This document shows positions 1 through 19,991 of a stretch of 34,460 bases of DNA, piece by piece (within the stretch, counting starts at the first letter, position 1; each line of letters begins with the position of its first letter). The DNA lies in the IMG/VR virus record IMGVR_UViG_3300030059_002546, positions 1-34,460 of that record. One strand, 5' to 3'. The notes under the pieces are model-generated. The model did no database searches, was not told the DNA's origin, and saw nothing but the letters and a program-made list of their open reading frames with translations. The position numbers were made by a program, and so were the translations under genes. The DNA is from a virus (Duplodnaviria > Caudoviricetes).

Positions 1-27
1 CTGCAAGAGGTGCTTGATGTATATATC

Positions 28-78
28 TGGTAGGCACGATTGGATTCGAACCAACGACCCCCACCATGTCAAGGTGGT
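28..78 (-). repeat. att core: 3' 51-nt fragment of tRNA-Val(GAC) (anticodon arm, T arm, 3' acceptor strand, CCA)
   Basis: Minus strand reads ACCACCTTGACATGGTGGGGGTCGTTGGTTCGAATCCAATCGTGCCTACCA; D arm and 5' acceptor strand are absent. Confidence 0.9.
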
Positions 79-243
79 ACGGTAACTCGCGCAAACCTAC
101 TAGGGGCGGCATTTTACACTGTTTTTAGCTACTGTCAAAAATGGCATTTTCGGCATAATAAAAACAATGGGTTATGTGTTGGTTTCGGACTCAATCAGCT
201 TTTCGCTTTCGCCAATTAAATTAATTTATTAAAGGTGAAAACG

Positions 244-360
244 ATGGATACATTTGATTTGATTTTAGCTGTTTTAGGAATAGCCGCAGTTTTTGGTTTG
301 GTTGGGGCTTCTTGGTTTTGGATCATGAAGAAAGACGTGCAGGATGTAGAGGAAGATTAA
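244..360 (+). CDS. 38-aa single-pass membrane protein (moron), not in ORF track
   Basis: AAGGTG RBS, then MDTFDLILAVLGIAAVFGLVGASWFWIMKKDVQDVEED*. Confidence 0.6.
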   Translation: MDTFDLILAVLGIAAVFGLVGASWFWIMKKDVQDVEED

Positions 361-365
361 ATATT

Positions 366-413
366 TTGACAATGGATAGCTAGAGATCATATTTTGTGAT
401 CTCGTTCACACTT
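366..413 (+). promoter_or_regulatory. sigma70-like promoter (-35 TTGACA) with CRP-family site over the predicted start
   Basis: TTGACA 366-371; -10 candidates CATATT (388) or TATTTT (390); TGTGA-TCTCGT-TCACA at 395-410. Confidence 0.65.
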
Positions 414-429
414 CTATGGAGGGAGTCCC

Positions 430-996
430 GTGAAAGCTATCCTGTTTTTTTCTGTTTTATTTTTTTCCGCCTCTGCTAATTCTGCGCTATTTACAATACT
501 TACTGGCGGTGCAGCCAGCCCTTTTGGTGGACACTATGATGGCTGCTCATCAGAATGTGTAATTGGCTACAAAGATCCAGCCGTCTTCCCTGATGCGGTT
601 GATTTGGACAATCCAATCAACAATGAAAATTATTTTTCAGTTGGAACGGATTTAGTAGATCGGCAAATGACAAACGGCGCAAATATTTTAATTGAGCGAC
701 CAGTTAATATTGTTATTGAGTGGACAACCTTTAATATAACTGATGCAAGTTTATATTACGATGGCAAGTCTCTGGCACTCCCCGGCACTGGCTCCGGATT
801 GTTTAGCTATTATTTATTTAACCAAGTATACACACCCTTCACATCCAGTTTCGCTATTGGTGGAAAAGCTTTATCTCTAGAATCTTTTGTTGAGCTAAGG
901 TTTTATGAGGTTAGTGAAGTGCCTTTGCCTGCAACTTTGTTTTTGCTCGCTCCAGCATTATTTGGCTTTATGGGGTTAAGGCGAAAATTATCTTAA
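430..996 (+). CDS. Secreted protein with VPLPA-CTERM (PEP-CTERM-like) sorting signal; moron
   Basis: Signal peptide ending SANSA; C-terminus VSEVPLPA + transmembrane helix + RRK; GGAGGGAG RBS; opposite orientation to late operon. Confidence 0.85.
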   Translation: MKAILFFSVLFFSASANSALFTILTGGAASPFGGHYDGCSSECVIGYKDPAVFPDAVDLDNPINNENYFSVGTDLVDRQMTNGANILIERPVNIVIEWTTFNITDASLYYDGKSLALPGTGSGLFSYYLFNQVYTPFTSSFAIGGKALSLESFVELRFYEVSEVPLPATLFLLAPALFGFMGLRRKLS

Positions 997-1475
997 TCTG
1001 GACGCCTGCATGCCTCTCGATAGTAGGCTACCTGAGCCTCTAATTTCACTATTCCATCCCTGAGGGCGTTATAAGTTGGTCGAGCAGAGGGATTAAGCTC
1101 GGGACGGGTTCTTTCACCCATGCTGGAATCGGTGCGGGTTTTGGGCAGTCTATCGCTATGGGCTGGACAACTGGCGTTGACGAGCAGGCGCTTATTGAGA
1201 GCATTAACAGCAGCATCAAGCCGCCTAGTTTTGTCTTCTGCATTGCGCATGATAGCGTATTGTTCAGTTTCAACAACTGAAAGCCTGGCCTGCTCTTTGT
1301 CGAGTTCATTTTGCAATTCCCGTTGTTTGGTTGCTGCGGTTACAGATATTTTTTGAAGTGTTTTTGACGTTTCCAAATTAGCTTTTGCAAGCTTTTCACC
1401 CATACGCCAACCCTGCACTCCAAACCCCGCACTAAAAGACACAAGTAAGACGGCGATTAAAAGGTATTTATTCAT
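993..1475 (-). CDS. Rz-like inner-membrane spanin
   Basis: Start MNKYLLIAV overlaps endolysin stop; N-terminal TM, coiled coil, RLLVNASCP motif; contains embedded lipoprotein ORF. Confidence 0.88.
   Translation of the reverse strand: MNKYLLIAVLLVSFSAGFGVQGWRMGEKLAKANLETSKTLQKISVTAATKQRELQNELDKEQARLSVVETEQYAIMRNAEDKTRRLDAAVNALNKRLLVNASCPAHSDRLPKTRTDSSMGERTRPELNPSARPTYNALRDGIVKLEAQVAYYREACRRPD
1049..1243 (-). CDS. Rz1-like outer-membrane spanin lipoprotein, embedded in Rz
   Basis: Alternative frame inside Rz; lipobox ISAC; Pro-rich CPKPAPIPAWV. Confidence 0.85.
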   Translation of the reverse strand: MQKTKLGGLMLLLMLSISACSSTPVVQPIAIDCPKPAPIPAWVKEPVPSLIPLLDQLITPSGME

Positions 1476-1998
1476 AAAGTCCAGCCAAACAAAGATTGTC
1501 ACGCTCAGCTTGTCTTCGGTTATACAATCCTTGAACAAATACCTTGCCATTAACGGTTGTTACGTAAGACCAGTTTGGTTTGCCACCATAGGTCGTTGCC
1601 AACAGATTGCAGCCGATCGCGTAATCACCATCATTTATATGACTAACAGAATTACTTGAGCATGTTTTTGGATAGCCAAAATTCCACGCATGGCTTGATA
1701 TGGCATCGAATACAGGCTGTGGCGGCTGATGCGTCAGACAAGAAAGCAATTTAAGCTGAACCTTTGTCACCGCTACACTCATAACGCGATCACACTTTTC
1801 TTTGGGCCAATATTCACCCACAATCACGGGCTCATCGGTTACGTGCTTTGTTATGCCATAGCAAGCAGTTGGTAATCCTTCTGCTAACTTATCGGCATAC
1901 ACCGTCATCCCATCCTGTCCACCTCCCTCCCATAATGCGAGAAAGGCAACAAGCACAGACGAGCCTAGCGTTAATCCGCCAACCTTCATTCTATTCAT
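1468..1998 (-). CDS. SAR-type endolysin (GH24 lysozyme)
   Basis: Weakly hydrophobic Gly/Ala/Ser-rich N-terminal helix, WEG...YAD...PTACYG catalytic region, GLYNRRQAE C-terminal motif. Confidence 0.9.
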   Translation of the reverse strand: MNRMKVGGLTLGSSVLVAFLALWEGGGQDGMTVYADKLAEGLPTACYGITKHVTDEPVIVGEYWPKEKCDRVMSVAVTKVQLKLLSCLTHQPPQPVFDAISSHAWNFGYPKTCSSNSVSHINDGDYAIGCNLLATTYGGKPNWSYVTTVNGKVFVQGLYNRRQAERDNLCLAGLYE

Positions 1999-2014
1999 GC
2001 TTTACTCCAGGCGT

Positions 2015-2038
2015 AAAAAAGCCGCCCGAAGGCGGCTT
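2015..2038 (-). terminator. Intrinsic terminator after 1236-aa gene
   Basis: AAGCCGCC-TTCG-GGCGGCTT-TTTT on minus strand. Confidence 0.85.
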
Positions 2039-2068
2039 GATTGAAGTTTAATTTAATATCTTTTATAC

Positions 2069-5000
2069 CTATAAGCCATATGAATCCCAAGGTGCTGGCG
2101 ATCCATTTATGCCAACGGCCACGGCAGCTATATGGACTCCTGGCGTATTATCCATGCCAAAACCAACAAAAGCGTTTGCTAACTCATTACTCGGAAGTGT
2201 CACGGAGTACACAGGTGTTTCTGGCCGTGACCCGTCATAAGCCCAATATCTTGTTGATATAATTCCTGCACCTGTTACAGTAGTTTCCACCCAATACCAG
2301 TTAGCATTAAAGTTGGTGGTACTGATGCCACCCGCGACCCCACTCCTTGTGAATACATCATCTACCACATATTGTATTTCAACATTATCAAACGTTGTTA
2401 CTAATCCACCGGCAACCCACTCAGGTTCAGCGCCATCCTCTTGTATTCTGGGGCATGGTTTAGGTTGGTATGTTCTTGATGTTGTACTTCCGGTCCCTTT
2501 CATGAGTGCAGCAATAGTTACAGTTCCAGTTTGAGCGCCTATCTCGTCAATTATTAACGCCAAATTAACAGAGTTAAGGTTGCCCCCTATGAGCGCGATA
2601 TTTCCAGTTACTCCAGACGGAAGGGTTGATTCAAATATTGAGTTGGTGACACTGTTCGGATTATTAGCAGCAGGTCTTAAAAATGGAACTGTTCCACCCA
2701 CTTCGTAATCATCCACATTGTAAAGGAATTGTGTTACAGCATTAGTTGATATATTCACGCCATCAACTAGCGTGTTAAACGCTTCTAAGGTATAGCCAGT
2801 GGTTACACCAGCATCAATAACTAATGCTACATAATTATTAACTTGAGAAGGGTTATAAAGATTGTTACCCGTTATCACGCCGCCATCAAATGTAGCAGAG
2901 CTAAGTTTTAAGCACTCACTGTTAAAGTCAATATTATTAACGTTGTCAACAATCTCTAGTCCACGTTGCACTTGTGCTTGGCTATAATCTGCCAATCTAT
3001 GCCCGATAACGCTATTGTCATCAATAACCGCTTTATAGCCTTGGTCTTCTGGATTCGCCCCAACAAACGCCGCCCATGAACCGCTATCATTCCCTAAATT
3101 CGCCACATCCTCTGTAACGTTTTTGGCAAACCTAACAGTTCCCGGAGCGCCGTAATAAACCAAGCAATGAAGTACGTTAGAATAGTTACCCCTTACAAGG
3201 AGTCCGTCAATAAATTCTCTCGGATTGGTGTTGTTTGTTATAGAGCAGTCCACACCAAAACGTCTATATTGCGACATAAAGTTGTCGCAAACAGATACGT
3301 TGTGCGAAGTATATCCTTCAATATTCTTTGCCAAGTTACTATTAACTGCAAAAGACGATCCTATGCCCTTGCCGAAGGTGTTATAACAAACGTGAGCATT
3401 ATCAATTGCACCACTGATGTATGCATCATGGTCTTTAACATCGTCTTTTGAATCGGTTTCAAACTCACAAAAGATTATTCCAACACTCCAGTTCACGTTT
3501 TTCATGGAGAGGTATACGTTGTAACTGTGCTCTACCGATCCGCTTGATATACAATAGTTTTCAGAACCGCAATCAGAAACCGTTGCTGACGCCAATACAA
3601 AACCATCCACATCCCAAGATGTATAAGCTATCCTCGGTTGAAGCCTCCCGGCATCATTTAAGTACCAGATGTACCCTGTCTGAGGTGTTTCGGGAGGAAT
3701 GGTTTCAATAGGCAAAAATACAGTTGTTCCAGATGGGTTTCCGGCACTGGTAAAGTCATTCCGATTATTCAGTAGCCCATCAAATTTACAACCCAAGAAT
3801 GTCCAATGGCGGATAAATCCATCTGCCGAGCAAACTGCCGAGAAGGTTGTACCAGAGACGGCTCCTTTAAATTCTACGTTGTGATAGCAGTCTCTAAACG
3901 TACCCGATCCAGTAGAGCTTAACGACCTACCAACAACCGTGTTTTTAAACTCGCCATCGACAACCCCGTTTGCCATAAAGAATCTATGGTCAGCAGGCGC
4001 GTTAATTGAGCTACCAATACCAGCCGCTAAAACAATCTGATCTGTTCCGGGATTTGTTAATCTGAACCCACCTTTGTAGCCAACGATATAAGTTGACATT
4101 CTGGTTGATTGAAGCTCTCCACGGGTCCATTCGCCAGTCACATACCAGAAGTTGCCGGTTAACGTATTATCGGTAGGTGGTGCTGCCTTCGGTCCAGTTG
4201 AGAAAGTAACGCCCGTGTAGTCCGCTCCTAATGCTTCGGCCAACTCAATCTCGTCATCACTTATTTTAGCTGCAACTTCGTAACGACCGGCAGGGAAGCC
4301 GCCCTCATTCGCCCCTGTAAAATACATATAGTTGTAGTTGTAAACTGGGTTAATGTTTGCGGATGCAGCAGTGTGGTCGTAATCAGCGAATAAACCTGTA
4401 CCGGTGACACGTTTAGTTGCATTTGTATAAGCAGCGGTTCCTGATACAACAAAGGCGCTTAAGCCATCATAGGCTGAATTTCCATTAACGGAATCCGCAT
4501 ACTTAACCGGGAAAGCGTTTTCAGTAACATTAAATGTTTTACTGAGACTGTTTACCCGGACAAATCCCTCACCATTTTGACCTTTTACTAAACAGGTAAC
4601 TTTATAATTATCAATAGCGGGAACAATCGCGTGATAGTTACCCTCCTTAGTATCTGAAAACAGATCAAATGCCGCATCCGTTATAGGATGTAGCAAGCCA
4701 AAATAATCGGGTACAGGGTTATCTTCCGCATCTGTAATGATGAACCTGATATCGAGATCGTTAAACTCATTAATTTCGTTAGCAGTTAAAGTCCTGCCGC
4801 CTGATATAGAAATATCACCAGGACGTATTTTGCATATCAACTGCTTTGGAACGGCATCTGGCGTTTCAACAATTTCAAAATCATTGACAACAAGACCGGT
4901 TATATCAATGTGTTTATAACCAACGTAATTTAAACCTAGATCAGGCTCTACAGTTCCCTGCCCAACAACGCTCTCAACCGTAACTAAATCATCTGTATTT

Positions 5001-5779
5001 GATGCTGAAGACGTTCCGGCTGCATTGGTTGCGGTAAATGATAATCCAGCAGCAGTACTTTCTGCGTCAGGTGTGCCGGTTATTGATCCTGTTGATGCGT
5101 TAAGCGTTGCCCATGAGGGCAACGTTCCTGTAGCAGTCTCAAACGTATCTATCTCGCCTGCAAACACATACGCAATGCTGAAACTGAAAGGAACACCAAT
5201 TGTGGCCTGTGGAAAATCAAGAGTTGCAATAACTGTAGGCGCTTCTAGTGCAGCCGCTTTATATACTGTGACCGTTCTAGTAGTAGGCGTAATCGTAAAG
5301 CCAGAAGGCACACCAATAATATCCAGCGTAACGCTCTGACCGTCTTCAACCGTAATGGTGTGAATATTGACGGTATAAACAGCCCCAACTTTCGACACAA
5401 CACCCTTGCTTGCGCCTGTTACCACAAAGTTGCCAGTGGTCAAGCCTGGGTCAATATCAAACGTTGCCGTTAATTGCGTGGTTGAAACTGAGCCACTTGT
5501 GCCGTTTGCGGTTAGGGATTGGAAGGCTACGGCTGTTGGTTCGACAAAAACCATTGTGGTGCGTGAAAGCGGCGAGAAGCTGTAGCCACTCGGACTTGTC
5601 ATGGTGATTGTTGCTTCGTTATTTCCTGCAGGCAGGCTAACGCTAGATATTGGTAAAACGCGAGTTGTTCCGGTTCCAGTCAATGTGCCTTTTACGGCAA
5701 AAGGAACGCCAAAATTATCAGCAGTTAATGGTCCGGGATCTTTGTTATATTCAAATACCAATTCTGATGTTGTAGCCAT
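2069..5779 (-). CDS. 1236-aa multidomain virion-associated protein: Ig-like repeats, He_PIG/cadherin-like domain, probable beta-helix, C-terminal lectin-like domain
   Basis: Two tandem ~90-aa Thr/Val-rich repeats; LPSWATLNASTGSITGTP; KYADSVNGNSAYDGLS; Asn-rich xxxxGN/DN repeats; TAATG overlap with upstream gene. Confidence 0.75.
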   Translation of the reverse strand: MATTSELVFEYNKDPGPLTADNFGVPFAVKGTLTGTGTTRVLPISSVSLPAGNNEATITMTSPSGYSFSPLSRTTMVFVEPTAVAFQSLTANGTSGSVSTTQLTATFDIDPGLTTGNFVVTGASKGVVSKVGAVYTVNIHTITVEDGQSVTLDIIGVPSGFTITPTTRTVTVYKAAALEAPTVIATLDFPQATIGVPFSFSIAYVFAGEIDTFETATGTLPSWATLNASTGSITGTPDAESTAAGLSFTATNAAGTSSASNTDDLVTVESVVGQGTVEPDLGLNYVGYKHIDITGLVVNDFEIVETPDAVPKQLICKIRPGDISISGGRTLTANEINEFNDLDIRFIITDAEDNPVPDYFGLLHPITDAAFDLFSDTKEGNYHAIVPAIDNYKVTCLVKGQNGEGFVRVNSLSKTFNVTENAFPVKYADSVNGNSAYDGLSAFVVSGTAAYTNATKRVTGTGLFADYDHTAASANINPVYNYNYMYFTGANEGGFPAGRYEVAAKISDDEIELAEALGADYTGVTFSTGPKAAPPTDNTLTGNFWYVTGEWTRGELQSTRMSTYIVGYKGGFRLTNPGTDQIVLAAGIGSSINAPADHRFFMANGVVDGEFKNTVVGRSLSSTGSGTFRDCYHNVEFKGAVSGTTFSAVCSADGFIRHWTFLGCKFDGLLNNRNDFTSAGNPSGTTVFLPIETIPPETPQTGYIWYLNDAGRLQPRIAYTSWDVDGFVLASATVSDCGSENYCISSGSVEHSYNVYLSMKNVNWSVGIIFCEFETDSKDDVKDHDAYISGAIDNAHVCYNTFGKGIGSSFAVNSNLAKNIEGYTSHNVSVCDNFMSQYRRFGVDCSITNNTNPREFIDGLLVRGNYSNVLHCLVYYGAPGTVRFAKNVTEDVANLGNDSGSWAAFVGANPEDQGYKAVIDDNSVIGHRLADYSQAQVQRGLEIVDNVNNIDFNSECLKLSSATFDGGVITGNNLYNPSQVNNYVALVIDAGVTTGYTLEAFNTLVDGVNISTNAVTQFLYNVDDYEVGGTVPFLRPAANNPNSVTNSIFESTLPSGVTGNIALIGGNLNSVNLALIIDEIGAQTGTVTIAALMKGTGSTTSRTYQPKPCPRIQEDGAEPEWVAGGLVTTFDNVEIQYVVDDVFTRSGVAGGISTTNFNANWYWVETTVTGAGIISTRYWAYDGSRPETPVYSVTLPSNELANAFVGFGMDNTPGVHIAAVAVGINGSPAPWDSYGL

Positions 5780-5820
5780 TATTCTTCCCCGCCGTTAGCT
5801 GTGACTGATAACCAAATGAC
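5258..5820 (-). repeat. Two tandem Ig-like protein repeats; the first is split across two ORFs
   Basis: VIWLSVTANGGEE*|MATTSELVFEYNKDPGPLTADNF...SPSGYSFSPLSRTTMVF aligns with VAFQSLTANGTSGSVSTTQLTATFDIDPGLTTGNF...VPSGFTITPTTRTVTVY. Confidence 0.8.
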
Positions 5821-6285
5821 CTCAATCGTTTCGTTGCCGGTGACGCGCACTATCGGCGAGTTGATTTCTACAACTGCGGTGCGACCGACGATTGAATTGG
5901 CAGATGATGGATTTGTGGTTGAGCTGAAGACTTTTCCGGTAAAGAAATCGCTTGTGCCGTCCTGATAATCAATCCGGAATGAATGTTCTGTATTCTTAGT
6001 GGCACCATCTACAGCAGCAGCTAAAATGGCTTGTCCGGCATCTAATATGTCCCGCCCAAGCTGCAGTGCTGTTTGCCCATAATTGATAAATCCTTTGTAC
6101 TTCTGGGTTACACCCGTCTTTAATGGATTGTGCTCAACTACCTGTGCGCTTGGCCCGTATTCGGGGATGTCGGTTACCTCTGCTACCTCGGTGTAGTCCA
6201 GCGCCAAAAAACCAGCACCATCAAGCACTAAAGGCTCACCAACAGCTACGGAAAAAACAGTCCCGGTACTGGTTAAAACGCCCAT
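5779..6285 (-). CDS. Second tail tube protein paralog with C-terminal extension
   Basis: Gap-free alignment with 13687-14145, 106/148 identical by hand count; AGGAG RBS. Confidence 0.9.
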   Translation of the reverse strand: MGVLTSTGTVFSVAVGEPLVLDGAGFLALDYTEVAEVTDIPEYGPSAQVVEHNPLKTGVTQKYKGFINYGQTALQLGRDILDAGQAILAAAVDGATKNTEHSFRIDYQDGTSDFFTGKVFSSTTNPSSANSIVGRTAVVEINSPIVRVTGNETIEVIWLSVTANGGEE

Positions 6286-6327
6286 GTGATTTCTCCTATT
6301 TGTGTCTGCATGAAAACTCCGGGCAAT

Positions 6328-6351
6328 AAAAAACCCGCACTAGGCGGGTTT
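6328..6351 (-). terminator. Intrinsic terminator after tail fiber assembly gene
   Basis: AAACCCGC-CTAGT-GCGGGTTT-TTT. Confidence 0.85.
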
Positions 6352-6373
6352 GTTTGGTGAGGTTTGTTGGCGG

Positions 6374-6892
6374 TTACAGCTGTATCTGATTTGCGTTTAT
6401 AAATAAATCGTCAAACTGCTGTTGAGTCAGATTTAATCCGCCTTCACCAGCAAGTAGCTGCATTGTCGGGCTGTTTTTTTGCCATGTATTTGCTGCATAT
6501 AAAGCCTGTTCAGCAATTATTTTTGTTGTGGGATCTGGAATAGCATCAACAAGAGCAATCACAGTGGGCCAATAGCCTGATATTTTTAGCTGCGCCGTTC
6601 CCTGCGCACGACTCACTTGAGTTATCGGCTCAGGATCGGGCGTAGGAATTTCATCCTGCCACCCAGAAGGCGTCTCATCCTCGGTCAATATTTCTTGTGA
6701 TTCGACAGCTTTATCAACCAGTCGGTAAACTGTTCGCTTTTCTCCGCTATAGATGAATGGAGCGCCTTCGCGCACTGTAACGGGCTTACCGTCCAATTTA
6801 GCCGCAAGCAGCGACTGATACTGTGCATCGCTTATTTCAATGCCACCACTAATCACTGACTGGCTTATAGTGTCGTTTTTCATATACGGCAT
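6374..6892 (-). CDS. Putative tail fiber assembly/chaperone protein
   Basis: GGIEISDAQYQSLL N-terminus and VSRAQG...LTQQQFDDLFINA C-terminus; coupled to fiber gene. Confidence 0.65.
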   Translation of the reverse strand: MPYMKNDTISQSVISGGIEISDAQYQSLLAAKLDGKPVTVREGAPFIYSGEKRTVYRLVDKAVESQEILTEDETPSGWQDEIPTPDPEPITQVSRAQGTAQLKISGYWPTVIALVDAIPDPTTKIIAEQALYAANTWQKNSPTMQLLAGEGGLNLTQQQFDDLFINANQIQL

Positions 6893-7800
6893 TATGCGAT
6901 CCTCATGTAATAGGTTGCACCGATGTTTCGTGGCCTTGTTTCATCACCGCCAGTTGCGCCAGAATTAAGGGTTGCTGTAGAACCAACTACACGACCATTT
7001 CCAGCGCCAACATAATCAAGAATCCCCCCGATAGGGTGGGTATGCGAGGCAAACTGATCGTCCTCCTCCGTGCCGGATGATCCTGGCCGAATAAATTGAC
7101 GAGACGTATTAAGTAGCTTGACCGTTTGCCCATTCATTGGGCTTGGTACATAATCTATTACTGCCGTAGCTACCACATCAGGAGCAGTGCCTGACACGCT
7201 CTCGCTGGTGAGCAATCCTTCGTTATATTCGCCAGATCCATCCTCGCCAGCTGTTAATTTTATAAATTTTGCAGTTCCTGAGTTTGATGGCTCGTCCACT
7301 CCAGTTAAGTGAGTCCATAAAGCAAAAGGCTCGCCTATGGCCCTCAACAAAAAAGCCTGCTGATTAACCTGCTCTAAAGTTGCTAAATCTGGCGCTTGCT
7401 CCGGGGTGACAATTCCGTTAAAACTCAGCGATACGGACCAGCTACTGAAGGTGCCACTACCCTGAACTACCTGAACATTAACTACCAGAGCACCCGTTGA
7501 TGTACTGTATGAAAGTACATCGCCAATCATCCAGAGACTGCCATTTGTGGTGCTGGCAATCTTTACCGACATGCCGGTGAAATAGGATTTTCCGGTTTCA
7601 ACCGTTAATGTTTTTTCAGCTACAGATATTGCAAGCGAGGTTGTTGATACACTATTAGTTGAAAGGCTATTTAATGCGGCAGCATAGGTATTTAATTCTT
7701 GCTGAAACTGTGGGAGCGCACCCAAAAAGTCGTCAGCTCTTGAATCAAAGTTATCGGGGCTAGCTGTGCTTGGTGGTGTGGGTAAGGCTGTTATTTCCAT
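6892..7800 (-). CDS. Short tail fiber with collar-like domain
   Basis: N-terminus LPTPPS...FDSRADDF; IGEPFALW, RQFIRP, DQFASHTH and GGDETRPRNIGATYYMRI collar/tip motifs. Confidence 0.8.
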   Translation of the reverse strand: MEITALPTPPSTASPDNFDSRADDFLGALPQFQQELNTYAAALNSLSTNSVSTTSLAISVAEKTLTVETGKSYFTGMSVKIASTTNGSLWMIGDVLSYSTSTGALVVNVQVVQGSGTFSSWSVSLSFNGIVTPEQAPDLATLEQVNQQAFLLRAIGEPFALWTHLTGVDEPSNSGTAKFIKLTAGEDGSGEYNEGLLTSESVSGTAPDVVATAVIDYVPSPMNGQTVKLLNTSRQFIRPGSSGTEEDDQFASHTHPIGGILDYVGAGNGRVVGSTATLNSGATGGDETRPRNIGATYYMRIA

Positions 7801-7802
7801 GC

Positions 7803-8729
7803 TTATATTTCCTCTAACTCTAAGTCAATAAGTGCGTGCTCTGGATGGCCTGCAGATATTCTGAATTTGCGATAAAAGCCAAGGATAAACAGAGCGTTGA
7901 AATATCCGTCTGTCGGATCATCAAGAGCGCTCCATACGGCAGGCACGGCGTTTAAATCACTGCGTACATCAATGAGTCTATTAATGAGGTTTTTATCTGT
8001 AAAAACGCGCTGTGATGTTTTTGGTATTGTGCGGCGAGGCACTAAAGTAGTGTCACCAAACTCATTGCGCTCGACGGTTGAGAAGTTCAACGCATCAGAT
8101 TCAGCCCTTGCTTCGGTTGATCCCAAATAAACTCGATTGCCAATAACCAATCCGCCGCACTTCACATCGCCAGAGTTACGGCTTATTTCAACGTGAATAA
8201 TGGCCTGGCTGAATGGGGGTAAATCTTCAAAAAAGCAGGCCTTTTGAAATACAAATGGTTTAAAGAAATAATCACTCCAGGTGACCACAGTTCTAACGAG
8301 AAGGTTTATTGTTTTGTCGTAAACTATTTCACTATCAACCTCCATCCAACACCTAACCTGCTCTGCTTGCAGGTTAAATAGCGCAACCGAACTGATACGA
8401 GTCATGGGGGTGATTTGAACATCAATTAATGAATCGTTGATCGTTTGCGTGTTTCGGATAAGCTCGAACATTTTCCAGCGGTTTATCTTGCCGATATAGT
8501 TCCAGTTCACAGGAGAGTCAACGTTGTCCTCCCACGGCTTATTGCCGGTATTGCCATCATTAACAGAGCGATAAATGTTGTTATAAAAAGTGCCGTCACC
8601 AGATATAACGATTACATATTCATCAGCGCTGTATGAGGTTGCGATATCCCACTCTGGATAATCATCCTCTGTCACGTTTGAGCCTGTTAGTCGTGCATTG
8701 GTTACAGCAACAGGAGGGATTACAATCAT
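7803..8729 (-). CDS. Tail tip/baseplate protein with N-terminal CBM5/12-like motif
   Basis: Directly follows tape measure (ATGA overlap); WDIATSYSADEYV...IYRS...N.G..P motif. Confidence 0.6.
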   Translation of the reverse strand: MIVIPPVAVTNARLTGSNVTEDDYPEWDIATSYSADEYVIVISGDGTFYNNIYRSVNDGNTGNKPWEDNVDSPVNWNYIGKINRWKMFELIRNTQTINDSLIDVQITPMTRISSVALFNLQAEQVRCWMEVDSEIVYDKTINLLVRTVVTWSDYFFKPFVFQKACFFEDLPPFSQAIIHVEISRNSGDVKCGGLVIGNRVYLGSTEARAESDALNFSTVERNEFGDTTLVPRRTIPKTSQRVFTDKNLINRLIDVRSDLNAVPAVWSALDDPTDGYFNALFILGFYRKFRISAGHPEHALIDLELEEI

Positions 8730-11700
8730 GCTGCTGACTCCGTTATTAATGAATTTCCGTCACGGGTGACACGCTCCAAAACGTCTGCGGTGGTTTTGGT
8801 GTTTCGGGCTATTTCGTTATTGCCGTATCTCAGCGCTGCAACTTCACTGCGCAATGCTGCTATCTCCTGAGCCATTGGGCGCATATCGATAAGTTGATCT
8901 TGATTAAATATCCGACTTGGCCCTGTTGCTTCAATCTCTGGGCCGTTTTCACCAACCATTCTCAGGCCGCCTGAGTGGTAACCGCCATTAGCAAAGCCCG
9001 GTATGCCGTTTTGATTAAGTGCAACCGCTCTGCGGAAATCAACAACATTGCTGAATCGGCTTGAATCTAATGAGCTTAAACTGTCAGCTAGTGCGTCTGC
9101 CTGCTCTCTGGTCTGCATAAATGCATCAACCAGCGATGGGAATACCGAGGCAAGGTTTAACCCTTCCTCTGTCATGAAATCAATTCCAGACGCTATCTGG
9201 ATTAACCCTTGAACGCTGCTTGGCACTTCAAGGCCAAATTCTTCAAACAATGCACTGGTATTGGCGCGCATCTGTTTTAATTGTTCAGTCGGATTTAACA
9301 AACCAAAGACAGCACCAGAAACCGCGCTTTTTAACTCATTTATTCCAGCGGTGTAATCGGCAAAGCCTTCACGTAATGCGAATAGTTCATAGAATGAATC
9401 GATACCAGCTTGTGTAGTGGTATCTATAGCTTTTAAAGCTTCGTCATAAGCCGTTAGACTTGCAGGCAATGCTCCGCCATAAACGGATTCCATCGCCTCA
9501 CGGATTTGCACAAGCTGCTGCCCTAGTGATTTACTACCATCAGCAGTTTGAGCAATATAGTTGACAAGCTCTCTTAATTGATCGCCTGCCGCGCCGGAAG
9601 CTAACGCAACCTGTGCAGCCTGGTTAACTGTTAACCCGAATCTTTCTGCAAGTTGCTCTTGCGCATTATTGAGATTGATTGACGCCTGAATCATTTTATT
9701 GATTGAGGCATTGTCTGTCATACCATTAAACAGTCTTTTAACCTGGCTAGGGATGTCACTTTTTTGTATGGCTTGAACTAGGTATGTTCCAACAATGCGG
9801 CCTAAAAACGCCTCTAAATTTTCCTGCCCGAATGCGTCTTTATCGCGCATAGTTCCAGTGTTAACGCCGCCACCGGAGAAGCCCCAGTAAGATGAGCCTC
9901 CATCACGCCCAGAATAGCGCGCAGTGGCATAGATATTTTTTTCTATATCAAAGCCTTTCTGCAGCGCATCAAGCGATGTGACAAACGCTGTCGTGGCGTT
10001 ACGAATACCTCCCGTTATGCTTGGATCGTATTCACCCCATCCAGTCATATTGCGGGATGATATAACGCCATTATTTGAAGATGCTGATGCGATACCACCT
10101 ACCCGGTCGGGCAAGTCGTCTCCGCCAAACAGACTGCCAACTACACTGCCAAGTGCGCCACCGATTGCCGCACCTATTGGACCGAAGAGGCTGCCAAGGT
10201 ATGTTCCTGCCGCCGTAAACGCTGCCCCCTTCACATCACCCTGAACGGCTTGCAGTATTGCTCCGGCATAAGGGAGTGCTTTTGATATGGCAACGTTGTT
10301 TTCTATTAGGAAGTTACCAAGCGTTCCTCTGATGCCTTCAAAATTACCGCCGATGGAAACACCGAGCTTTGCTATACCTTCAACTACGGCATTGTTGCCT
10401 TTCATTAAGCCCTGCTGGATAGCGCCAACGATGGTATTTCCTGCCCCTGCAACACCACCTGTTCCGCCTGCCGCCGCACCACTTTGACCAGTGCCGCCAC
10501 CACCGCCTGAAAAAGCCTGCTGAAACTGCATGACAATTGGCCGAGTAATGGCTGCATGTGCTAATTCAGCTAATAACCCCGTAAAGCTGCGTTTTAAGGT
10601 ACTGCCAAAATCCTTGAACCCATCAAAAGCAGATGTCCACAGATTGGCGAACATGTCGTCCACGCGCTCAATGCCACGCTTCCACGCTGTTTCAAATTCT
10701 GTCGCAGTATCTTTGGTTTTTCTGCCAACATCATCAAGTGAGTCAGCCAGCTGCTCATTTAACCTTTCAGCGTCCTGCTTGCTGATTAAGCCTTTTTTGA
10801 GCAAGTCGTTTATTATCTTCTCTTGCTTGATCCATTCATTCGTTTGAGCAATTAAAGGATTTAATGACCCTTCAAGCTTTTCCACCGCCTCCATGTCAGC
10901 TATAAGGCTAGACATAAACTGATCGTCTGCTGCTGTTTTTAACGTGATACCGTTTGTTTTTAATGCTTCAGTCTGGTCATAAAGGCTTGCGGCAACTTCT
11001 CTTATCGATTGCGCGTATTGGTGGTTATCGCTGACACCAAGCTTTATTTGTTCGTTATAGATAAACTGCTCGCGCTCAGACATGGTGAGCATTTTGGTTT
11101 GAGTTTCTAAATCTGTTAGCAGTTCTTTATATTTTTCAGAAAGCTTTTGTGCAGCCTTCCCGTGATTTTCAGTTGATTCAGCGGCCTGCGTTTCTGCTTG
11201 TGCAATATTTTCAGTGACTAGAACAGTGCCACGTAATACAGATTCATATTCTGAAATCTGCGCCCGTAATTCTGCGATCCTTGCCGCATTGCCGCGTGAC
11301 ATTTGACCGCGACCAGAATTTCCGTCAAGAAGTGATTCTAATTCGGCGCGTGACGATACCAGCGCATCAGCAACAGCATCCAAATCGCCAGCATCTGCTT
11401 TTAAAAGTGCAAGCTCTGCCCTGGCAGTTGCTAATTGTTGCTGTAATGCAGATTCTTGTGCGCCCGCTGAACGTCCAAAGAAACGACTACTAGAAAGCCG
11501 TTCTTCAAGGCTCGCGATTTCTTCTTCAAGTGACGCAATGGTTTGTCCGCCAACCGCCTCAGTAATCTTGTTAATGAACTCGGTTAGCCATTGAGTTGAA
11601 CTGCGTAATGCAGGTTCAAGCTTTTCTCCAAAGGTAATACTTAAGCCTTCAATAGCACTATCCAGCTCTAGGCCATCGCCTTTAAGCGTGTCCATTCTTA

Positions 11701-12670
11701 TGGAGGCTTGCTCTGTAGCGGTTTCAGTGCCGCGTAACTGTGAGTTTAATTTTTCAACGTTACCAGCCTGGGTTAATAGTGCTGTACCGGCTGTAAAGGC
11801 TTCGTCACCGAATAGCTCCATTAATTCAGTGTTTGAAAGATTTCTTCTTTCAAGTTCAAGTAATGCGCCGGTTAAACCAACAACAGATGGCTGCAATTGG
11901 GCGTCTGCTGTCTTTTCAAGCCGTAACAGTACCTGGCGCAAGCCTGTGCCCGCATCAGCGCCTTGACGCCCTGCTATGGCTAAGCCTTGAATACCGGCAA
12001 CCGTTTCAGCGAGATCAACACTTAATGCGTTGGCTGCTGGACCAGCATTTCTTAAGGCTTCTGTAACGGCTGGTATTTCAGCCGCACCGAATTTGGCAGA
12101 TGCGGCCAGAATATTAATGACTTCATTCGATTTGGTAGCGTCAAGTTGAAACTGGTTTAATGCGCTACCCAAGGCTGATGCAGCATTAGGTAAGTCAATC
12201 CCAGCTGCCTCAGCCAAGGTAACAGCTTCTCTGGTAACCTGATTTAAAGCGTCAGCACTGCCAAGCAAGTCGGGCTTAGCTGAACCAATCAGTTTAAAGG
12301 CTTCAACAGCCTGAGAGGCGCTTAACGACGTGGTTCTCCCTATCTCCTGTGCCTGTTCACTGTAAAAGGCTAAGTCACGCCCTGCGGCTCCTGTAATAGC
12401 AGACAAATCAGCAATAGACTGTCCGAACTGAGATATGTCGCGACGCGCCTTGCTAACCAGTGCGCCTGCCGCTGCAACCGCCGCAATACCTGCTGCCGCA
12501 CCCAAAGCTGCAACCTTTATGCGTGAATAGTCACGCACCATTGCTGTGGTTGATTGTTTTGTAGTGCGCTCAGCCGTTTGACCTTTACGGCTTAAATTGT
12601 CAAATTCACGGCCAGCTTTGGATAGATCGCTTGTGTCGGCTTTAAAGCCAATACTCACTAAATCAGTCAT
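8726..12670 (-). CDS. Tape measure protein (TP901-like core)
   Basis: 1314 aa, Ala-rich helical; GADAGTGLR core motif; C-terminal FANGG...MVGENGPE; follows tail chaperones. Confidence 0.95.
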   Translation of the reverse strand: MTDLVSIGFKADTSDLSKAGREFDNLSRKGQTAERTTKQSTTAMVRDYSRIKVAALGAAAGIAAVAAAGALVSKARRDISQFGQSIADLSAITGAAGRDLAFYSEQAQEIGRTTSLSASQAVEAFKLIGSAKPDLLGSADALNQVTREAVTLAEAAGIDLPNAASALGSALNQFQLDATKSNEVINILAASAKFGAAEIPAVTEALRNAGPAANALSVDLAETVAGIQGLAIAGRQGADAGTGLRQVLLRLEKTADAQLQPSVVGLTGALLELERRNLSNTELMELFGDEAFTAGTALLTQAGNVEKLNSQLRGTETATEQASIRMDTLKGDGLELDSAIEGLSITFGEKLEPALRSSTQWLTEFINKITEAVGGQTIASLEEEIASLEERLSSSRFFGRSAGAQESALQQQLATARAELALLKADAGDLDAVADALVSSRAELESLLDGNSGRGQMSRGNAARIAELRAQISEYESVLRGTVLVTENIAQAETQAAESTENHGKAAQKLSEKYKELLTDLETQTKMLTMSEREQFIYNEQIKLGVSDNHQYAQSIREVAASLYDQTEALKTNGITLKTAADDQFMSSLIADMEAVEKLEGSLNPLIAQTNEWIKQEKIINDLLKKGLISKQDAERLNEQLADSLDDVGRKTKDTATEFETAWKRGIERVDDMFANLWTSAFDGFKDFGSTLKRSFTGLLAELAHAAITRPIVMQFQQAFSGGGGGTGQSGAAAGGTGGVAGAGNTIVGAIQQGLMKGNNAVVEGIAKLGVSIGGNFEGIRGTLGNFLIENNVAISKALPYAGAILQAVQGDVKGAAFTAAGTYLGSLFGPIGAAIGGALGSVVGSLFGGDDLPDRVGGIASASSNNGVISSRNMTGWGEYDPSITGGIRNATTAFVTSLDALQKGFDIEKNIYATARYSGRDGGSSYWGFSGGGVNTGTMRDKDAFGQENLEAFLGRIVGTYLVQAIQKSDIPSQVKRLFNGMTDNASINKMIQASINLNNAQEQLAERFGLTVNQAAQVALASGAAGDQLRELVNYIAQTADGSKSLGQQLVQIREAMESVYGGALPASLTAYDEALKAIDTTTQAGIDSFYELFALREGFADYTAGINELKSAVSGAVFGLLNPTEQLKQMRANTSALFEEFGLEVPSSVQGLIQIASGIDFMTEEGLNLASVFPSLVDAFMQTREQADALADSLSSLDSSRFSNVVDFRRAVALNQNGIPGFANGGYHSGGLRMVGENGPEIEATGPSRIFNQDQLIDMRPMAQEIAALRSEVAALRYGNNEIARNTKTTADVLERVTRDGNSLITESAA

Positions 12671-12682
12671 GCTCGCCGCCTT

Positions 12683-13123
12683 TTAGGTAATTTTTCCAAA
12701 CACGTCTTTAATGCCTTTACTCAGCACTTCACGCCAAGACGTGATCTTGCTTTCATCCGCATAGGGAGCCGGATAGGTTTTCTGTTTTGATTTTTGCGAC
12801 ATCACGGCATATTCCCGCGACATCAATATGATTTGCTCGGACTCCCAGCCCGAAAGCGGTACACCTGATTGCTGGCAATAGCTTTGGACATCGCCCCAAG
12901 TAAATGGAGTAATCCCCATGCTGCCTTGATTGATTTGCCCCATACGGGAAAAGTGATGCGCCAGGTCTTCAGCGTTTTCGATTTCCGGCAACGCTTTGAA
13001 TGGTGATTCATCTTCCAGCGTTTTTATTCGTGGCTCTGTATCTTTATCTTTCACTGACGGCGCTGTATGCAGCCATGCCAATTGCGCTGCATACAGTTTT
13101 AGTTTGTCCGTCAGCTCTTGATA
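12683..13123 (-). CDS. Tail assembly chaperone, frameshift extension (gpT-like)
   Basis: -1 frame open from the slippery site through YQELTDKLKLYAAQLAWLH...; PFTWGDVQSY...LSGWESEQIILMSREY motif. Confidence 0.85.
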   Translation of the reverse strand, partial: YQELTDKLKLYAAQLAWLHTAPSVKDKDTEPRIKTLEDESPFKALPEIENAEDLAHHFSRMGQINQGSMGITPFTWGDVQSYCQQSGVPLSGWESEQIILMSREYAVMSQKSKQKTYPAPYADESKITSWREVLSKGIKDVFGKIT

Positions 13124-13536
13124 AAATTTTCCTGCTCAGCAATGAAGTTGCCGACCTGAACACGAATATCTTTGAAGCTTTTATAAAGGTTCACAGCATT
13201 TTCAAAAGTGAACGGCATGGCATTACCTTCTTTGTCTGGAATATTCTCCCAGCCAACCGTTAATTTTGCGTAAAGCTCGCAAGCGTCCTGGATGGATTGC
13301 TCAATATCAATATCATCCTTTTTATTGCTCTTACGGCGAGCGCGGGCTTTAACCTGAACGTATTTGGTGTATTCGTCAGAATCAAGACCGAGCAAAGTGA
13401 TCGTAAGTGGTTTTTTAGGGTTTTTAACGCCTTCATCAAGATAGGCTGGGACCCCAGAGCCGGGAACAGTTAAATGTAAAACTGCACCACTGTTAGCCTG
13501 AGAAACCGTGTCAAAAACTGATAAATTTAAAGCCAT
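13111..13536 (-). CDS. Tail assembly chaperone (gpG-like)
   Basis: Between tail tube and tape measure; ITLLGLDS, TVGWENI, ENF end motif. Confidence 0.88.
   Translation of the reverse strand: MALNLSVFDTVSQANSGAVLHLTVPGSGVPAYLDEGVKNPKKPLTITLLGLDSDEYTKYVQVKARARRKSNKKDDIDIEQSIQDACELYAKLTVGWENIPDKEGNAMPFTFENAVNLYKSFKDIRVQVGNFIAEQENFIKS
13123..13129 (-). other. -1 ribosomal frameshift heptamer A AAT TTT
   Basis: GAA AAT TTT ATC AAG AGC TGA fits X XXY YYZ in frame, and the -1 frame joins the downstream ORF. Confidence 0.85.
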
Positions 13537-13539
13537 AAT

Positions 13540-13630
13540 TATTCATCCTACATCCGAGATAATGAATTGCGCGGCAGCGCGGGCCGGATGAAAAAACCGC
13601 GTTTTCGATTGCGCCAATCTAGCCGCACAA
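13540..13630 (-). promoter_or_regulatory. Structured 5' leader (three-way junction with anti-RBS loop) of the tail chaperone gene
   Basis: TTGTGCGGC/GCCGCGCAA, GATTG/CAATC and CGCGG/CCGCG stems; loop TTCATCC complementary to GGATGAA at the RBS. Confidence 0.55.
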
Positions 13631-13638
13631 ACAGGTAC

Positions 13639-13659
13639 AAAAAAACCCGCATAAGCGGG
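13639..13659 (-). terminator. Intrinsic terminator after major tail tube gene
   Basis: CCCGC-TTAT-GCGGG-TTTTTTT. Confidence 0.8.
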
Positions 13660-13686
13660 CCTGTGTCGTTTTCTTTGGTTATGCGA

Positions 13687-14145
13687 TTATGGTGTTGGTA
13701 AAACCCGAACCACGATTGAATTGATTTCAACACTGGCCGTACTGCCTACCATTGAATTAGCTGAACCAGGGTTTGTGGTATAACTGAAAACCTTGCCAGT
13801 GAAGTAATCAATCGAACCGTCTTGATATTCGATACTGAAGGAATGCTCATCATTCTTGGTTGAACCCGTAACACCATCAGACAAAATAACCTGGCCAGCG
13901 TCAGCAACATCCTGTGCCAGCTGTAATGCTGTTGAGCCGTAGTTAATAAAGCCTTTGAATTTCTGAGTAACGCCGGTTTTAAGCGGGTTATGCTCAACGA
14001 CCTGAACATTGGGGCCGTACTCTGGAATATCGGTAACCTCACCCACTTCAACAAACGTTAAAGCGCCGAAGCCTGCTGCATCGATGGTTGCTGGTTCGTC
14101 AGCGACTACCGATAAGATTGTGCCTGTGCTTGTTAAAACACTCAT
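13687..14145 (-). CDS. Major tail tube protein
   Basis: Canonical position; VGEVTDIPEYG, KFKGFINYG, DAGQ, YFTGKVFS motifs. Confidence 0.9.
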   Translation of the reverse strand: MSVLTSTGTILSVVADEPATIDAAGFGALTFVEVGEVTDIPEYGPNVQVVEHNPLKTGVTQKFKGFINYGSTALQLAQDVADAGQVILSDGVTGSTKNDEHSFSIEYQDGSIDYFTGKVFSYTTNPGSANSMVGSTASVEINSIVVRVLPTP

Positions 14146-14208
14146 TGGTAAATCCTCTTAGTTGTGTACACAAAAATCATCCGGTTTTATCGGTAGAGCG
14201 GCGCGCTC

Positions 14209-14622
14209 TTATCTGATATGGAAAGCATCAAAACGTAACTCAATCATGATCCCGTACCACACGTCTTCGTCAGGCTTTGGCTTGACGGTTGACTCAAACG
14301 TGCGTAACTGGAAGCCGCTTTCGGTTATATCTTGATGTGAAATGTCTTGGCTGATTGCATCTGCTTTGGTCAGCGATGTGATAACGCCGCTACCTTTCGG
14401 TGCGAATAAATCAATCTGAGCAATGCCATTCATGCGGTCTTTGCCGTTGCCGTAAGTGAAAAACGACAGATCACCACTGAGTAGAGTTATGCGCGCCCAA
14501 AGTTCGTTATCAGGGGTTTCAAAACTACCATTTGGCACTTTAATCTTGCTGATTCCGGCTGCTGTGATGGCGTTTACCAGTAGCGTTGTCAGGATGTTGC
14601 GTTGCTGTAGGTTATTTGCCAT
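14209..14622 (-). CDS. Tail terminator protein (DUF4128-like)
   Basis: PNGSFETP, WARITLL, GIAQIDLFAPKGSG motifs; precedes tail tube. Confidence 0.8.
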   Translation of the reverse strand: MANNLQQRNILTTLLVNAITAAGISKIKVPNGSFETPDNELWARITLLSGDLSFFTYGNGKDRMNGIAQIDLFAPKGSGVITSLTKADAISQDISHQDITESGFQLRTFESTVKPKPDEDVWYGIMIELRFDAFHIR

Positions 14623-14764
14623 AAATAAGACCAAATAATGAACTAACACTGCCAACACGTTTATAAATTGCTATACCAAAAAGAGTGGTCAGCTCAATAT
14701 CACCAACGCGCTGATAAACCAAGCTGCCCCAAAGCATTTCTTTGTGCTCAGTATCACTAGCCAT
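14612..14764 (-). CDS. 50-aa hypothetical protein with internal repeat, not in ORF track
   Basis: MASDTEHKEMLWGSLVYQRVGDIELTTLFGIAIYKRVGSVSSLFGLIYGK*; overlaps both neighbours. Confidence 0.6.
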   Translation of the reverse strand: MASDTEHKEMLWGSLVYQRVGDIELTTLFGIAIYKRVGSVSSLFGLIYGK

Positions 14765-14960
14765 TACGGTTTGCCGAATTAAATGTAAGTGTCACTTGCG
14801 TTAGCTCGCCCACACCACTTGAAGCGGAAACGTTTAATTGGTCAGGTATCATGTGTCCATACTGATCAACCACAATCAAAACACCGTCCACCTCCATAAT
14901 TGAAAGCCTTGTGTTGCTTTCTTTTGGAAATCTTGCGTTAGTCGGAAATGCTAAAGCCAT
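14757..14960 (-). CDS. Hypothetical protein (67 aa)
   Basis: Start MALAF via TAATG overlap, GAGGGG RBS. Confidence 0.6.
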   Translation of the reverse strand: MALAFPTNARFPKESNTRLSIMEVDGVLIVVDQYGHMIPDQLNVSASSGVGELTQVTLTFNSANRNG

Positions 14961-15319
14961 TACAACCCCCTCACCTGAATAATCCAAACCGCATCGGCTG
15001 CATCTTTTTCAGCACGAACCACCTGACAATCAACACCATCGACATTAACTTTCAGGCCGTCTGTTTTTGGGTTTATCTCTGTGAAATTATTTACCAAGGC
15101 GAGCAGTTTAAAATCGCGTGACTGGATGGCTTGGCCATCAATTTGTCTTGCTTGATATTCTTCACGAACTGCATCTACCGTTTCAGTAGCGCCGCCGGTT
15201 TCTTGCTCTGTAATTGGATCAACAGCACCCGGCAAAGTAAATACACGCGGCAGGAAGAAATCAGAAAAGGTGGTTTTAATGTCCGCTGCTATACCTTGGA
15301 AATCAGCGCGTGTAACCAT
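14960..15319 (-). CDS. Putative head closure (stopper) protein
   Basis: IDGQAIQSRDFKLL and WIIQVR motifs; neck region. Confidence 0.75.
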   Translation of the reverse strand: MVTRADFQGIAADIKTTFSDFFLPRVFTLPGAVDPITEQETGGATETVDAVREEYQARQIDGQAIQSRDFKLLALVNNFTEINPKTDGLKVNVDGVDCQVVRAEKDAADAVWIIQVRGL

Positions 15320-15338
15320 TTTCCAATCTCCAGATAAT

Positions 15339-15361
15339 AAAAAACCCCAATTAAGGGGTTT
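15339..15361 (-). terminator. Intrinsic terminator within neck module
   Basis: AAACCCC-TTAATT-GGGGTTT-TTT. Confidence 0.8.
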
Positions 15362-15379
15362 CTAGTAAATTTGTTTTGT

Positions 15380-16263: not shown

Positions 16264-16361
16264 TATGCGTTAGCCTTCCGACGCTTGCGTGCCAGTTGAC
16301 TTAGATACGCCTTTACCGCTGCGCTTTGGGGTTGGGCGAACTTCATCTGTTGTGCTTTCAT
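16263..16361 (-). CDS. 32-aa basic peptide, not in ORF track
   Basis: MKAQQMKFAQPQSAAVKAYLSQLARKRRKANA*; ATGA overlap upstream, TAATG overlap downstream, GAAGG RBS. Confidence 0.6.
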   Translation of the reverse strand: MKAQQMKFAQPQSAAVKAYLSQLARKRRKANA

Positions 16362-16663: not shown

Positions 16664-16671
16664 CTCTAAAG

Positions 16672-16696
16672 AAAAGCCCGCACATGGCGGGCTTTC
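16672..16696 (-). terminator. Intrinsic terminator after major capsid gene
   Basis: AAAGCCCGC-CATGT-GCGGGCTTTT. Confidence 0.85.
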
Positions 16697-16711
16697 AATT
16701 AACGCCTATGG

Positions 16712-19988: not shown

Positions 19989-19991
19989 TAT

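Follow-up and report, generated by a model that had tools for sequence, protein, structure and literature searches.

A second tail-tube gene of a Methylophaga prophage and its predicted split Ig-like link to a 1236-residue beta-rich protein

In a viral stretch of 34,460 nucleotides (Caudoviricetes; IMG/VR record IMGVR_UViG_3300030059_002546, positions 1 to 34,460; hereafter the window), a second tail-tube gene, TTP2, overlaps the gene for a 1236-residue protein, hereafter the cargo. As judged from the sequence, the C-terminal tail of TTP2 and the first 79 residues of the cargo appear to be two halves of a single Ig-like repeat. We propose, at a confidence somewhat short of an even chance, that TTP2 is a minor tail subunit, and that its tail strand docks the cargo, a predicted depolymerase, by strand complementation of two chains. 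An initial annotation of this DNA had recognized the second tube gene and its large partner and had overlooked the split, which would supply the mechanism of the link. The features concerned are as follows.

13687-14145, minus strand: TTP1, major tail-tube gene, 152 amino acids, at the usual place between the tail terminator and the assembly chaperones
5779-6285, minus strand: TTP2, second tail-tube gene, 168 amino acids, with a lambda-gpV-like tube domain and a 20-residue tail
5842-6285, minus strand: TTP2 tube domain, residues 1-148, by similarity to TTP1 and phrog_158
5782-5841, minus strand: TTP2 tail, residues 149-168, first strand and ANG turn of an Ig-like repeat, predicted donor strand
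5777-5799, minus strand: TAATG stop/start overlap with a Shine-Dalgarno-like purine run in the last TTP2 codons, by anti-Shine-Dalgarno pairing
2069-5779, minus strand: cargo protein, 1236 amino acids, with an incomplete Ig repeat, a complete Ig repeat, He_PIG and a long beta-rich region
5543-5779, minus strand: Ig repeat 1 without its first strand, cargo residues 1-79, predicted acceptor, by profile match
5252-5539, minus strand: Ig repeat 2, cargo residues 81-176, complete, by profile match
5003-5239, minus strand: He_PIG putative Ig domain, cargo residues 181-259 (PF05345, E 3.7e-8, above cut-off)
2690-3988, minus strand: predicted right-handed beta-helix region, about residues 600-1030, limits approximate, from a low-confidence model

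The Ig-like repeat across the TTP2/cargo junction

A profile of the 96-residue Ig-like repeat was constructed from 18 copies in the 15 homologs found for the large protein. This profile covers cargo residues 81-175 in full; for residues 3-79 the match begins at position 19 and ends at position 94 of the 96 (44 bits, E 2e-14). By DNA alignment, the TTP2 tail followed by the cargo start runs parallel to repeat 2 in the same register, apart from 2 additional bases at the TAATG. The whole-repeat hidden Markov model gives no match to the TTP2 tail and a short-strand profile was needed, which was made from 9 distinct homolog starts. On this first-strand profile, TTP2 residues 156-165 rank second among the 41,774 10-mers of the six-frame window, behind the intact repeat, and none of the C-terminal regions of 152 other tube proteins reaches half the score of the TTP2 tail. 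The break in repeat 1 is located at the loop following the ANG turn. The tail and the new N-terminus together give six loop residues, as in all 18 aligned intact repeats, and Met at this loop is found in 0 of these 18. The repeat is presumably of the type of the SbsA and CopC Ig domains.

The initial annotation had claimed translational coupling of TTP2 to the 1236-residue protein, and the overlap of 5779-6285 with 2069-5779 at TAATG, together with a ribosome-binding site of ordinary strength, agrees with it. The anti-Shine-Dalgarno pairing of the cargo start is −5.7 kcal/mol, within the range of −3.4 to −7.6 for 16 other structural and lysis starts (the uncertain Rz start gives +0.6 on the same measure), a strength that no more than 2 of the 78 internal in-frame ATGs reach. 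The TAATG coupling occurs also at the fibre/assembly junction of the same phage. For any −1 shift, a −1 frame stop just upstream leaves a span of four codons near the TTP2 stop, in which a search limited to canonical sites detected no X XXY YYZ heptamer, and the downstream RNA is no better folded than its shuffles (z +0.2 and +1.2). The cargo start looks adapted. The normal ribosome-binding site, the absence of Met from intact loops, the reuse of TAATG and the lack of a shift signal altogether favour two chains, synthesized in step, that would reunite by strand complementation.

The reality of the junction was examined in other copies of the same DNA. The 70 bases across the TTP2/cargo junction are identical in L001, L012, L132 and L162, of which L001 and L132 are one contig, so that the four fetched loci represent three contigs. 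In each of four sequencing runs, which may include the window's own source, one junction-spanning contig was found with 0 differences or indels; four lower-coverage runs from two other studies gave no coverage across the junction. An assembly error, considered as the origin of the junction, was ruled out by this identity across contigs and runs. The exact 1236-residue protein is present on 24 contigs and the exact 168-residue protein on 37, and every observed copy of the split form belongs to one clone. A Methylophaga sp. contig carries the window DNA at 100% identity over 1-15779 and 99.98% over 15292-31289; the host is a marine Methylophaga bacterium that carries the window as a prophage. 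This prophage is a lambdoid siphovirus, with structural and lysis genes in the order terminase, portal, capsid, neck, tube, chaperones and tape measure, then a 308-residue tip protein, fibre, fibre-assembly protein, TTP2, the 1236-residue protein, endolysin and spanin; this block is encoded on the minus strand throughout. Beyond it lie repressor, CII-like and replication genes. All structural, lysis and replication genes are open, the TTP2 and cargo open reading frames (ORFs) included.

TTP2 itself was compared with the tail-tube family. The ungapped alignment with TTP1 reported in the initial annotation, 106 identities in 148 positions, was reproduced with E 3e-78. Its estimate of about 7.4 kb between the two genes likewise agrees with the 7,402 bases measured, and so does the place of TTP2 after the fibre genes, the upstream neighbours being the fibre gene (6892-7800) and the fibre-assembly gene (6374-6892). 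TTP2 matches phrog_158 (major tail protein) over residues 6-152 (E 1e-17) and scores 211 bits on a profile built from 107 tube relatives; a tube-family profile reaches the gpV chains in PDB (E 3.6e-5), and Pfam TTP matches stay below cut-off. Between the two genes, the proportion of differences is 0.94 at silent sites (pS), which are saturated, and 0.17 at replacement sites (pN), and no exact DNA match extends beyond 12 bases. Given this saturation and this short match, the duplication is old, and the TTP2 protein has been maintained under purifying selection. At 37 family-conserved positions, TTP2 keeps 31 and TTP1 all 37, while the 107 plain tube proteins have a median of 8 deviations. The core of TTP2 is intact. 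TTP1 ends at its stop codon, followed by a terminator, and no Ig frame comes after it. Avoidance of recombination between the paralogs by codon anti-matching was also considered and rejected, the match of 32 in 105 shared codons against 39.7 expected (z −1.6) being not significant.

The cargo protein, its slot and its anchors

Beyond He_PIG, no Pfam, PHROG or PDB sequence match was found for the cargo, and it has no match to a Pfam beta-helix domain. In the structural model, short strands repeat over about residues 600-1030. The best PDB matches of the model are phage tailspikes (E 1.5e-5 to 3e-4, template modelling (TM) score 0.10), and fold searches of PDB and of BFVD were both topped by tailspikes or depolymerases at a TM score of about 0.1, with lesser jelly-roll and CBM matches. 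Atlas features match beta-helix clusters at 0.86, which is taken as a lead only. The cargo is thus probably a beta-helix protein that binds or cuts glycans, either a depolymerase or an adhesin.

The cargo gene occupies a slot that is shared with other phages. Its borders are as follows.

6328-6351, minus strand: intrinsic terminator upstream of the slot (6331-6351 in the terminator scan), common to relatives without TTP2
6273-6311, minus strand: 12-codon upstream ORF from the ancestral cargo ATG, overlapping the TTP2 start in a different frame and marking the module's left edge
2015-2038, minus strand: intrinsic terminator in the gap between cargo and endolysin, 8-bp stem and U run, z −2.5, common to relatives

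The terminator scan listed 19 terminators in the window; that at 2015-2038 is not among the 19 and is supported by folding. The initial annotation had taken the two terminators as bounds of a dedicated two-gene cassette. This was not borne out, because both flank the cargo gene in relatives without TTP2. As a mark of a TTP2-specific unit the terminators were rejected; they mark the slot. In five viral loci, cargo homologs were found in this slot, between the fibre genes and the endolysin, with no tube gene ahead; as assigned from gene content, these slot relatives are podovirus-like (L008/L009 and L011) or siphoviruses (L007/L010). A further cargo homolog lies at the end of the tail genes of a myovirus-like prophage (L013).

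The relatives begin the cargo gene at an ATG that is preserved in the window at 6311, and their cargos open with a peptide of about 20 residues, after which comes either repeat 2 or the cargo proper. Upstream of the slot, the window and its relatives have the terminator and leader in common. Similarity of DNA to the relatives breaks at 6309-6314 and resumes at 5536-5545. These breaks bound an inserted module of about 765 bases (about 5546-6310), comprising TTP2 and one Ig repeat, in place of the N-terminal peptide. The peptide-anchored homolog P0001 is identical to the cargo over residues 245-1236, all 15 differences lying within residues 85-244. This identity points to a recent exchange of the cargo between the two anchors. 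Repeat 2 shows 78-91% identity among relatives with unrelated cargos and is likely a recombination handle for cargo swaps.

As to the anchor of the relatives, an alternating hydrophobic N-terminal pattern was found in 6 of 15 cargo homologs and other peptides in the remaining 9, and the pattern is absent from the window protein. The podovirus, siphovirus and myovirus bearers of the cargo each have a beta-rich candidate base gene for 84-91 amino acids. No match to the three candidate base genes was detected in the window, and no gene lies at two comparable syntenic places. Searches of PDB sequences, PHROGs, annotated phages and Atlas gave no support for the base identity of these candidates; the best fold-search Z was 3.0, from a poor model with a predicted local distance difference test (pLDDT) score of 38. 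By analogy, the N-terminal peptide of the relatives is likely a head-fibre anchor, and the occurrence of one cargo family across three tail types would be best explained by attachment to the head.

Two further observations concern these relatives. Between podovirus-like L009 (7774-9871) or L011 (8300-9871) and the present siphovirus, the C-terminal half of the fibre is 57-69% identical and the fibre-assembly gene 83-92%; the fibre/cargo/lysis block appears to move between tail types. The 67.7-kb record G003 (L013-L016) contains two prophages, one myovirus-like and one podovirus-like, each with a cargo gene of its own (P0008 and P0014).

Second tube copies in other phages

The initial annotation had proposed a homolog search for phages with two tube paralogs. 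A search with the tube over cluster representatives gave 877 relatives, of which the best 150 were examined. Among these 150, 13 exceed 300 amino acids and 12 of the 13 carry the tube domain first; besides the tube domain they contain GDSL and SASA esterase, Calx-beta and He_PIG domains that pass the cut-off, with GH16 and CBM_4_9 matches falling below it. A search with nine such fusions in alignment retrieved 73 viral loci, and 50 of the records, picked by length, were searched whole. Two tube copies were found in 5 of the 50 records, representing four distinct phages (G093 and G094 are near copies), in a sample that is enriched by its query and gives no estimate of frequency. Without exception, the second copy lies 9.6-13.6 kb downstream and continues in frame into a long cargo. 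The fused proteins are 1494, 381, 381, 822 and 642 amino acids long, with a cargo part of 230-1350 residues; two GH5 domains were recognized in one cargo and a weak Calx-beta match in another, and two are without Pfam cargo. No long tube protein was the sole tube copy among the same 50 records.

The arrangement in G088, G093/G094, G121 and G133 is a plain tube gene plus a distant second copy with a glycan-active or cryptic cargo, after tip or lysis genes: the fused copies of G121 and G133 lie with tip/fibre genes, and those of G088, G093 and G094 after lysis genes. These second copies are in-frame fusions with unrelated cargos and separate origins, and none is split, unlike the window. The nearest relative of each second copy is its own TTP1, or else a tube protein no more than 2 points nearer. 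In all tube pairs the nonsynonymous rate (dN) is lower than the synonymous rate (dS), and at conserved positions the second copy exceeds its own TTP1 by 4-8 changes. In a quick tree of 65 rows, built without G094, TTP2 groups with its own TTP1, a branch with a support of 99 separates the GC-rich copies, and at least three changes of state are forced. By this tree, second tube copies need at least three origins, and the recurrence of the second tube paralog is well supported by genomics. Among cultured phages, 127 records match TTP2, each at a single place.

Several other tube-like sequences were noted. P0138 is a 1464-residue protein with the tube domain in its middle (residues 511-657), after a beta-helix-like region. 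A 1-kb contig carries a tandem pair of divergent tube-like genes (L182, 79-961). G147 18569-18697 and G148 32785-32913 weakly resemble tube positions 1-44 (E about 2e-6), in a 170-residue frame on the strand opposite to the tube gene. An Acyltransferase-3 gene (L129 4181-5320, plus strand) is convergent on the fused second tube gene of G121; it is possibly a surface-modifying moron beside a glycan-directed cargo.

Proposed mechanism, rival explanations and known systems

The events read from the DNA are an old duplication of the tube gene plus its leader, the insertion of the module of about 765 bp, TTP2 plus one Ig repeat, at the start codon of the cargo gene, and a split of the repeat in the loop behind strand one, where a TAATG couples the new start and the ribosome-binding site is normal. 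TTP2 might be kept at a low level by the terminator and the overlapping upstream ORF, so that few TTP2 subunits would enter the TTP1 rings. The tail strand would project outward, like C-terminal extensions of lambda-type tubes, and complete Ig repeat 1. Repeats 1 and 2 and He_PIG would serve as spacer, and the distal beta-helix region may bind or cut polysaccharide of the host or biofilm. Cargo would be exchanged with the peptide-anchored, likely head-fibre, gene pool by recombination within repeat 2/He_PIG. With the chains split, the tube subunit would be free to fold and polymerize unburdened by a load of 130 kDa, and the enzyme may be detachable. The minor tube subunit carrying a large glycan-active tail protein, as envisaged in the initial annotation, is thereby supported in part, namely by selection on TTP2, by its 31 retained positions of 37 and by the fused copies in 5 of 50 records.

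Several points weigh against this mechanism. The cargo has no catalytic Pfam domain and no sequence match in PDB, and its model (residues 80-1236, from 11 sequences) has a mean pLDDT of 47.8. TTP2 alters six conserved positions, A19, T20, T30, G35, Y114 and G127, and its tree branch is 0.40 vs 0.05 for TTP1; it appears intact, yet relaxed or specialized. The donor strand is without lysine, so that no isopeptide lock can be formed, and a lone edge strand may bind weakly. All five other two-copy records use covalent fusion and none a split. A full second copy was found in 0 of 26 closer records searched, many of them fragments. The DNA pattern of strand-stop/start-DPG has one match in viral contigs, which is this phage, and a search with the middle part of the cargo finds this phage alone. 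The split is known from one clonal phage, so that a recent lesion is a possible explanation. Among 83 genomes of the host's family, TTP2 has a match in one, already known to carry it.

Such a lesion would have cut an ancestral TTP2-cargo fusion by a 2-base insertion, leaving the cargo unanchored and the cassette decaying in a clonal prophage. Exactly 2 extra bases are indeed present at the junction, the five other second copies are all fusions, every split copy belongs to the same clone, and TTP2 evolves faster than TTP1. A chance lesion, however, needs a break at the loop and an in-frame ATG with a normal ribosome-binding site, such as only 2 of 78 internal ATGs have, and at that loop none of the 18 intact repeats offers a Met. 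Both ORFs, and the structural, lysis and replication genes, have stayed open. A fused TTP2-Ig-cargo form was found neither among longer proteins (2 matches, with other cargos) nor among near-length cargo relatives, which is weak evidence. We regard a broken fusion as unlikely. Two frames that are continuous halves of one domain would suit programmed recoding as well, in which a −1 shift in the last four TTP2 codons gives a covalent TTP2-cargo protein of about 1400 residues, as for SPP1 gp17.1* and TpeX of 936 phages. Frameshifted tube extensions are documented in PMC8718954 and PMC6669499, and all other second copies are covalent fusions. Set against the missing heptamer at canonical sites, the ordinary folding of the downstream RNA and the strong start of the cargo itself, recoding is judged quite unlikely.

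The remaining alternatives concern where TTP2 would act. It could hold the cargo at a single ring, near the tip or the neck, as a side-fibre adaptor and not along the whole shaft. The TTP2 gene lies among tip/fibre genes, like the fused genes of G121 and G133, the tip of this phage is minimal with no recognized hub or central-fibre gene, and the 4-8 extra changes at conserved positions in second copies could restrict the fit. We nevertheless consider single-ring docking very unlikely, since the ungapped identity of 72% is far above that known for tube-like tip and terminator proteins vs their tubes, and since the copies of G088, G093 and G094 after lysis genes indicate that gene position says little. 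Finally, TTP2 might stay outside the virion, as self-polymerized free tubes or as a mere carrier, releasing the enzyme at lysis to clear capsule or biofilm. Tube proteins can self-polymerize, as SPP1 gp17.1 does, a detachable biofilm-degrading tailspike is described for RcGTA (10.64898/2026.07.19.739414), and the cassette is directly before the endolysin. The closeness of each second copy to its own TTP1 fits co-assembly, however, and the other anchors of the cargo family look virion-bound, which leaves this last alternative very improbable.

In chaperone-usher pili, a strand-deficient Ig fold is completed by the terminal strand of another chain. An Ig domain without one terminal strand and the missing strand on another chain are both present here, by profile match. 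In pilins it is the C-terminal strand that is absent, and the gap is filled, with the help of a chaperone, by an N-terminal extension; here the first strand is missing, the donor is C-terminal, and binding is only predicted.

Docking by strand complementation differs also from the tail extensions in print. SPP1 gp17.1* and lambda gpV carry a C-terminal Ig-like domain on a lambda-type tube protein, by fusion or frameshift; in SPP1 a quarter of the tube subunits carry the Ig extension, for which binding of cell-wall sugars was proposed (PMC8718954). TTP2 is alike in that Ig-like domains follow the tube domain, here two Ig-like repeats and He_PIG. The extensions of SPP1 and lambda are of about 100 residues from the major tube gene, whereas here a paralog 7.4 kb away gives one strand to a separate 1236-residue protein. 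TpeX of lactococcal 936 phages, 470-530 amino acids in total length, displays a large carbohydrate-binding extension along the tail on a fraction of subunits and was shown to bind host cells (PMC6669499). It is made by programmed frameshift from a single major tail gene as a binding module, with no paralog, no split domain and no predicted beta-helix enzyme. TTP2/cargo works like TpeX but is no member, its extension not coming from the major gene.

For RcGTA, PMC7296036 describes a head spike (Rcc01079 base, Rcc01080 fibre) with a flexible capsule-binding fibre, a short N-terminal alternating-leucine peptide and a pentameric base. Likeness to this spike belongs to the window's relatives and not to the window, which has no such peptide and no match to the candidate bases. 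RcGTA TspA is a glycan-degrading beta-rich enzyme, loosely attached to a tailed particle via an N-terminal beta-sandwich (10.64898/2026.07.19.739414); its abstract mentions no tube paralog. The "second tail tube" of PMC13595954 is a second ring and was rejected as a second tube gene. In a literature search lacking most subscription papers, no account was found of a second tube gene that bears cargo, nor of strand complementation on any tail. What is new is the separate paralog and the split link, and not large carbohydrate-binding tube extensions, which TpeX already represents.

More broadly, tube duplication may recurrently yield a subunit for shaft display, realized here as a non-covalent plug and socket, a one-strand tag with a split Ig on a 130-kDa depolymerase, with fibres movable between head vertices and shaft by a swap of the 5' anchor. 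We hold this wider proposal as possible but rather doubtful. Tail tubes are generally regarded as the product of a single gene, and their decorations as arising by fusion or frameshift. A recurring second tube gene for large glycan-active cargos would be an overlooked third route to arm virions, hidden by annotation as "major tail protein", and it would set the number of enzymes per tail through expression and not symmetry. The near-identical cargo behind two anchors permits a direct test of head vs shaft position in infection through capsule. If the proposal is true, a natural split-Ig tag of this kind, able to place 130 kDa of protein on a self-assembling tube, would also be of use for display.

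Some other genes of the window were also noted. The tail tip at 6374-12670 is minimal, consisting of the tape measure, a 308-residue phrog_6278 protein, a 302-residue fibre and its assembly protein, and PHROG comparison recognized no hub or central-fibre gene among these genes; in the GC-rich two-copy phages, the phrog_6278 domain sits within proteins of 778-1261 amino acids. Three HNH endonuclease-like genes lie in the early and middle region (25988-26968, 27666-27953 and 28953-29543). At 430-996 on the plus strand, facing the lysis genes, a 188-residue protein is encoded with a signal-like N-terminus and a C-terminal motif resembling VPLPA/PEP-CTERM (Pfam below cut-off); it is likely a moron for the exosortase-dependent placement of a protein on the host surface. 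In L008/L009, the same slot is occupied by a gene 30% identical to the 188-residue protein.

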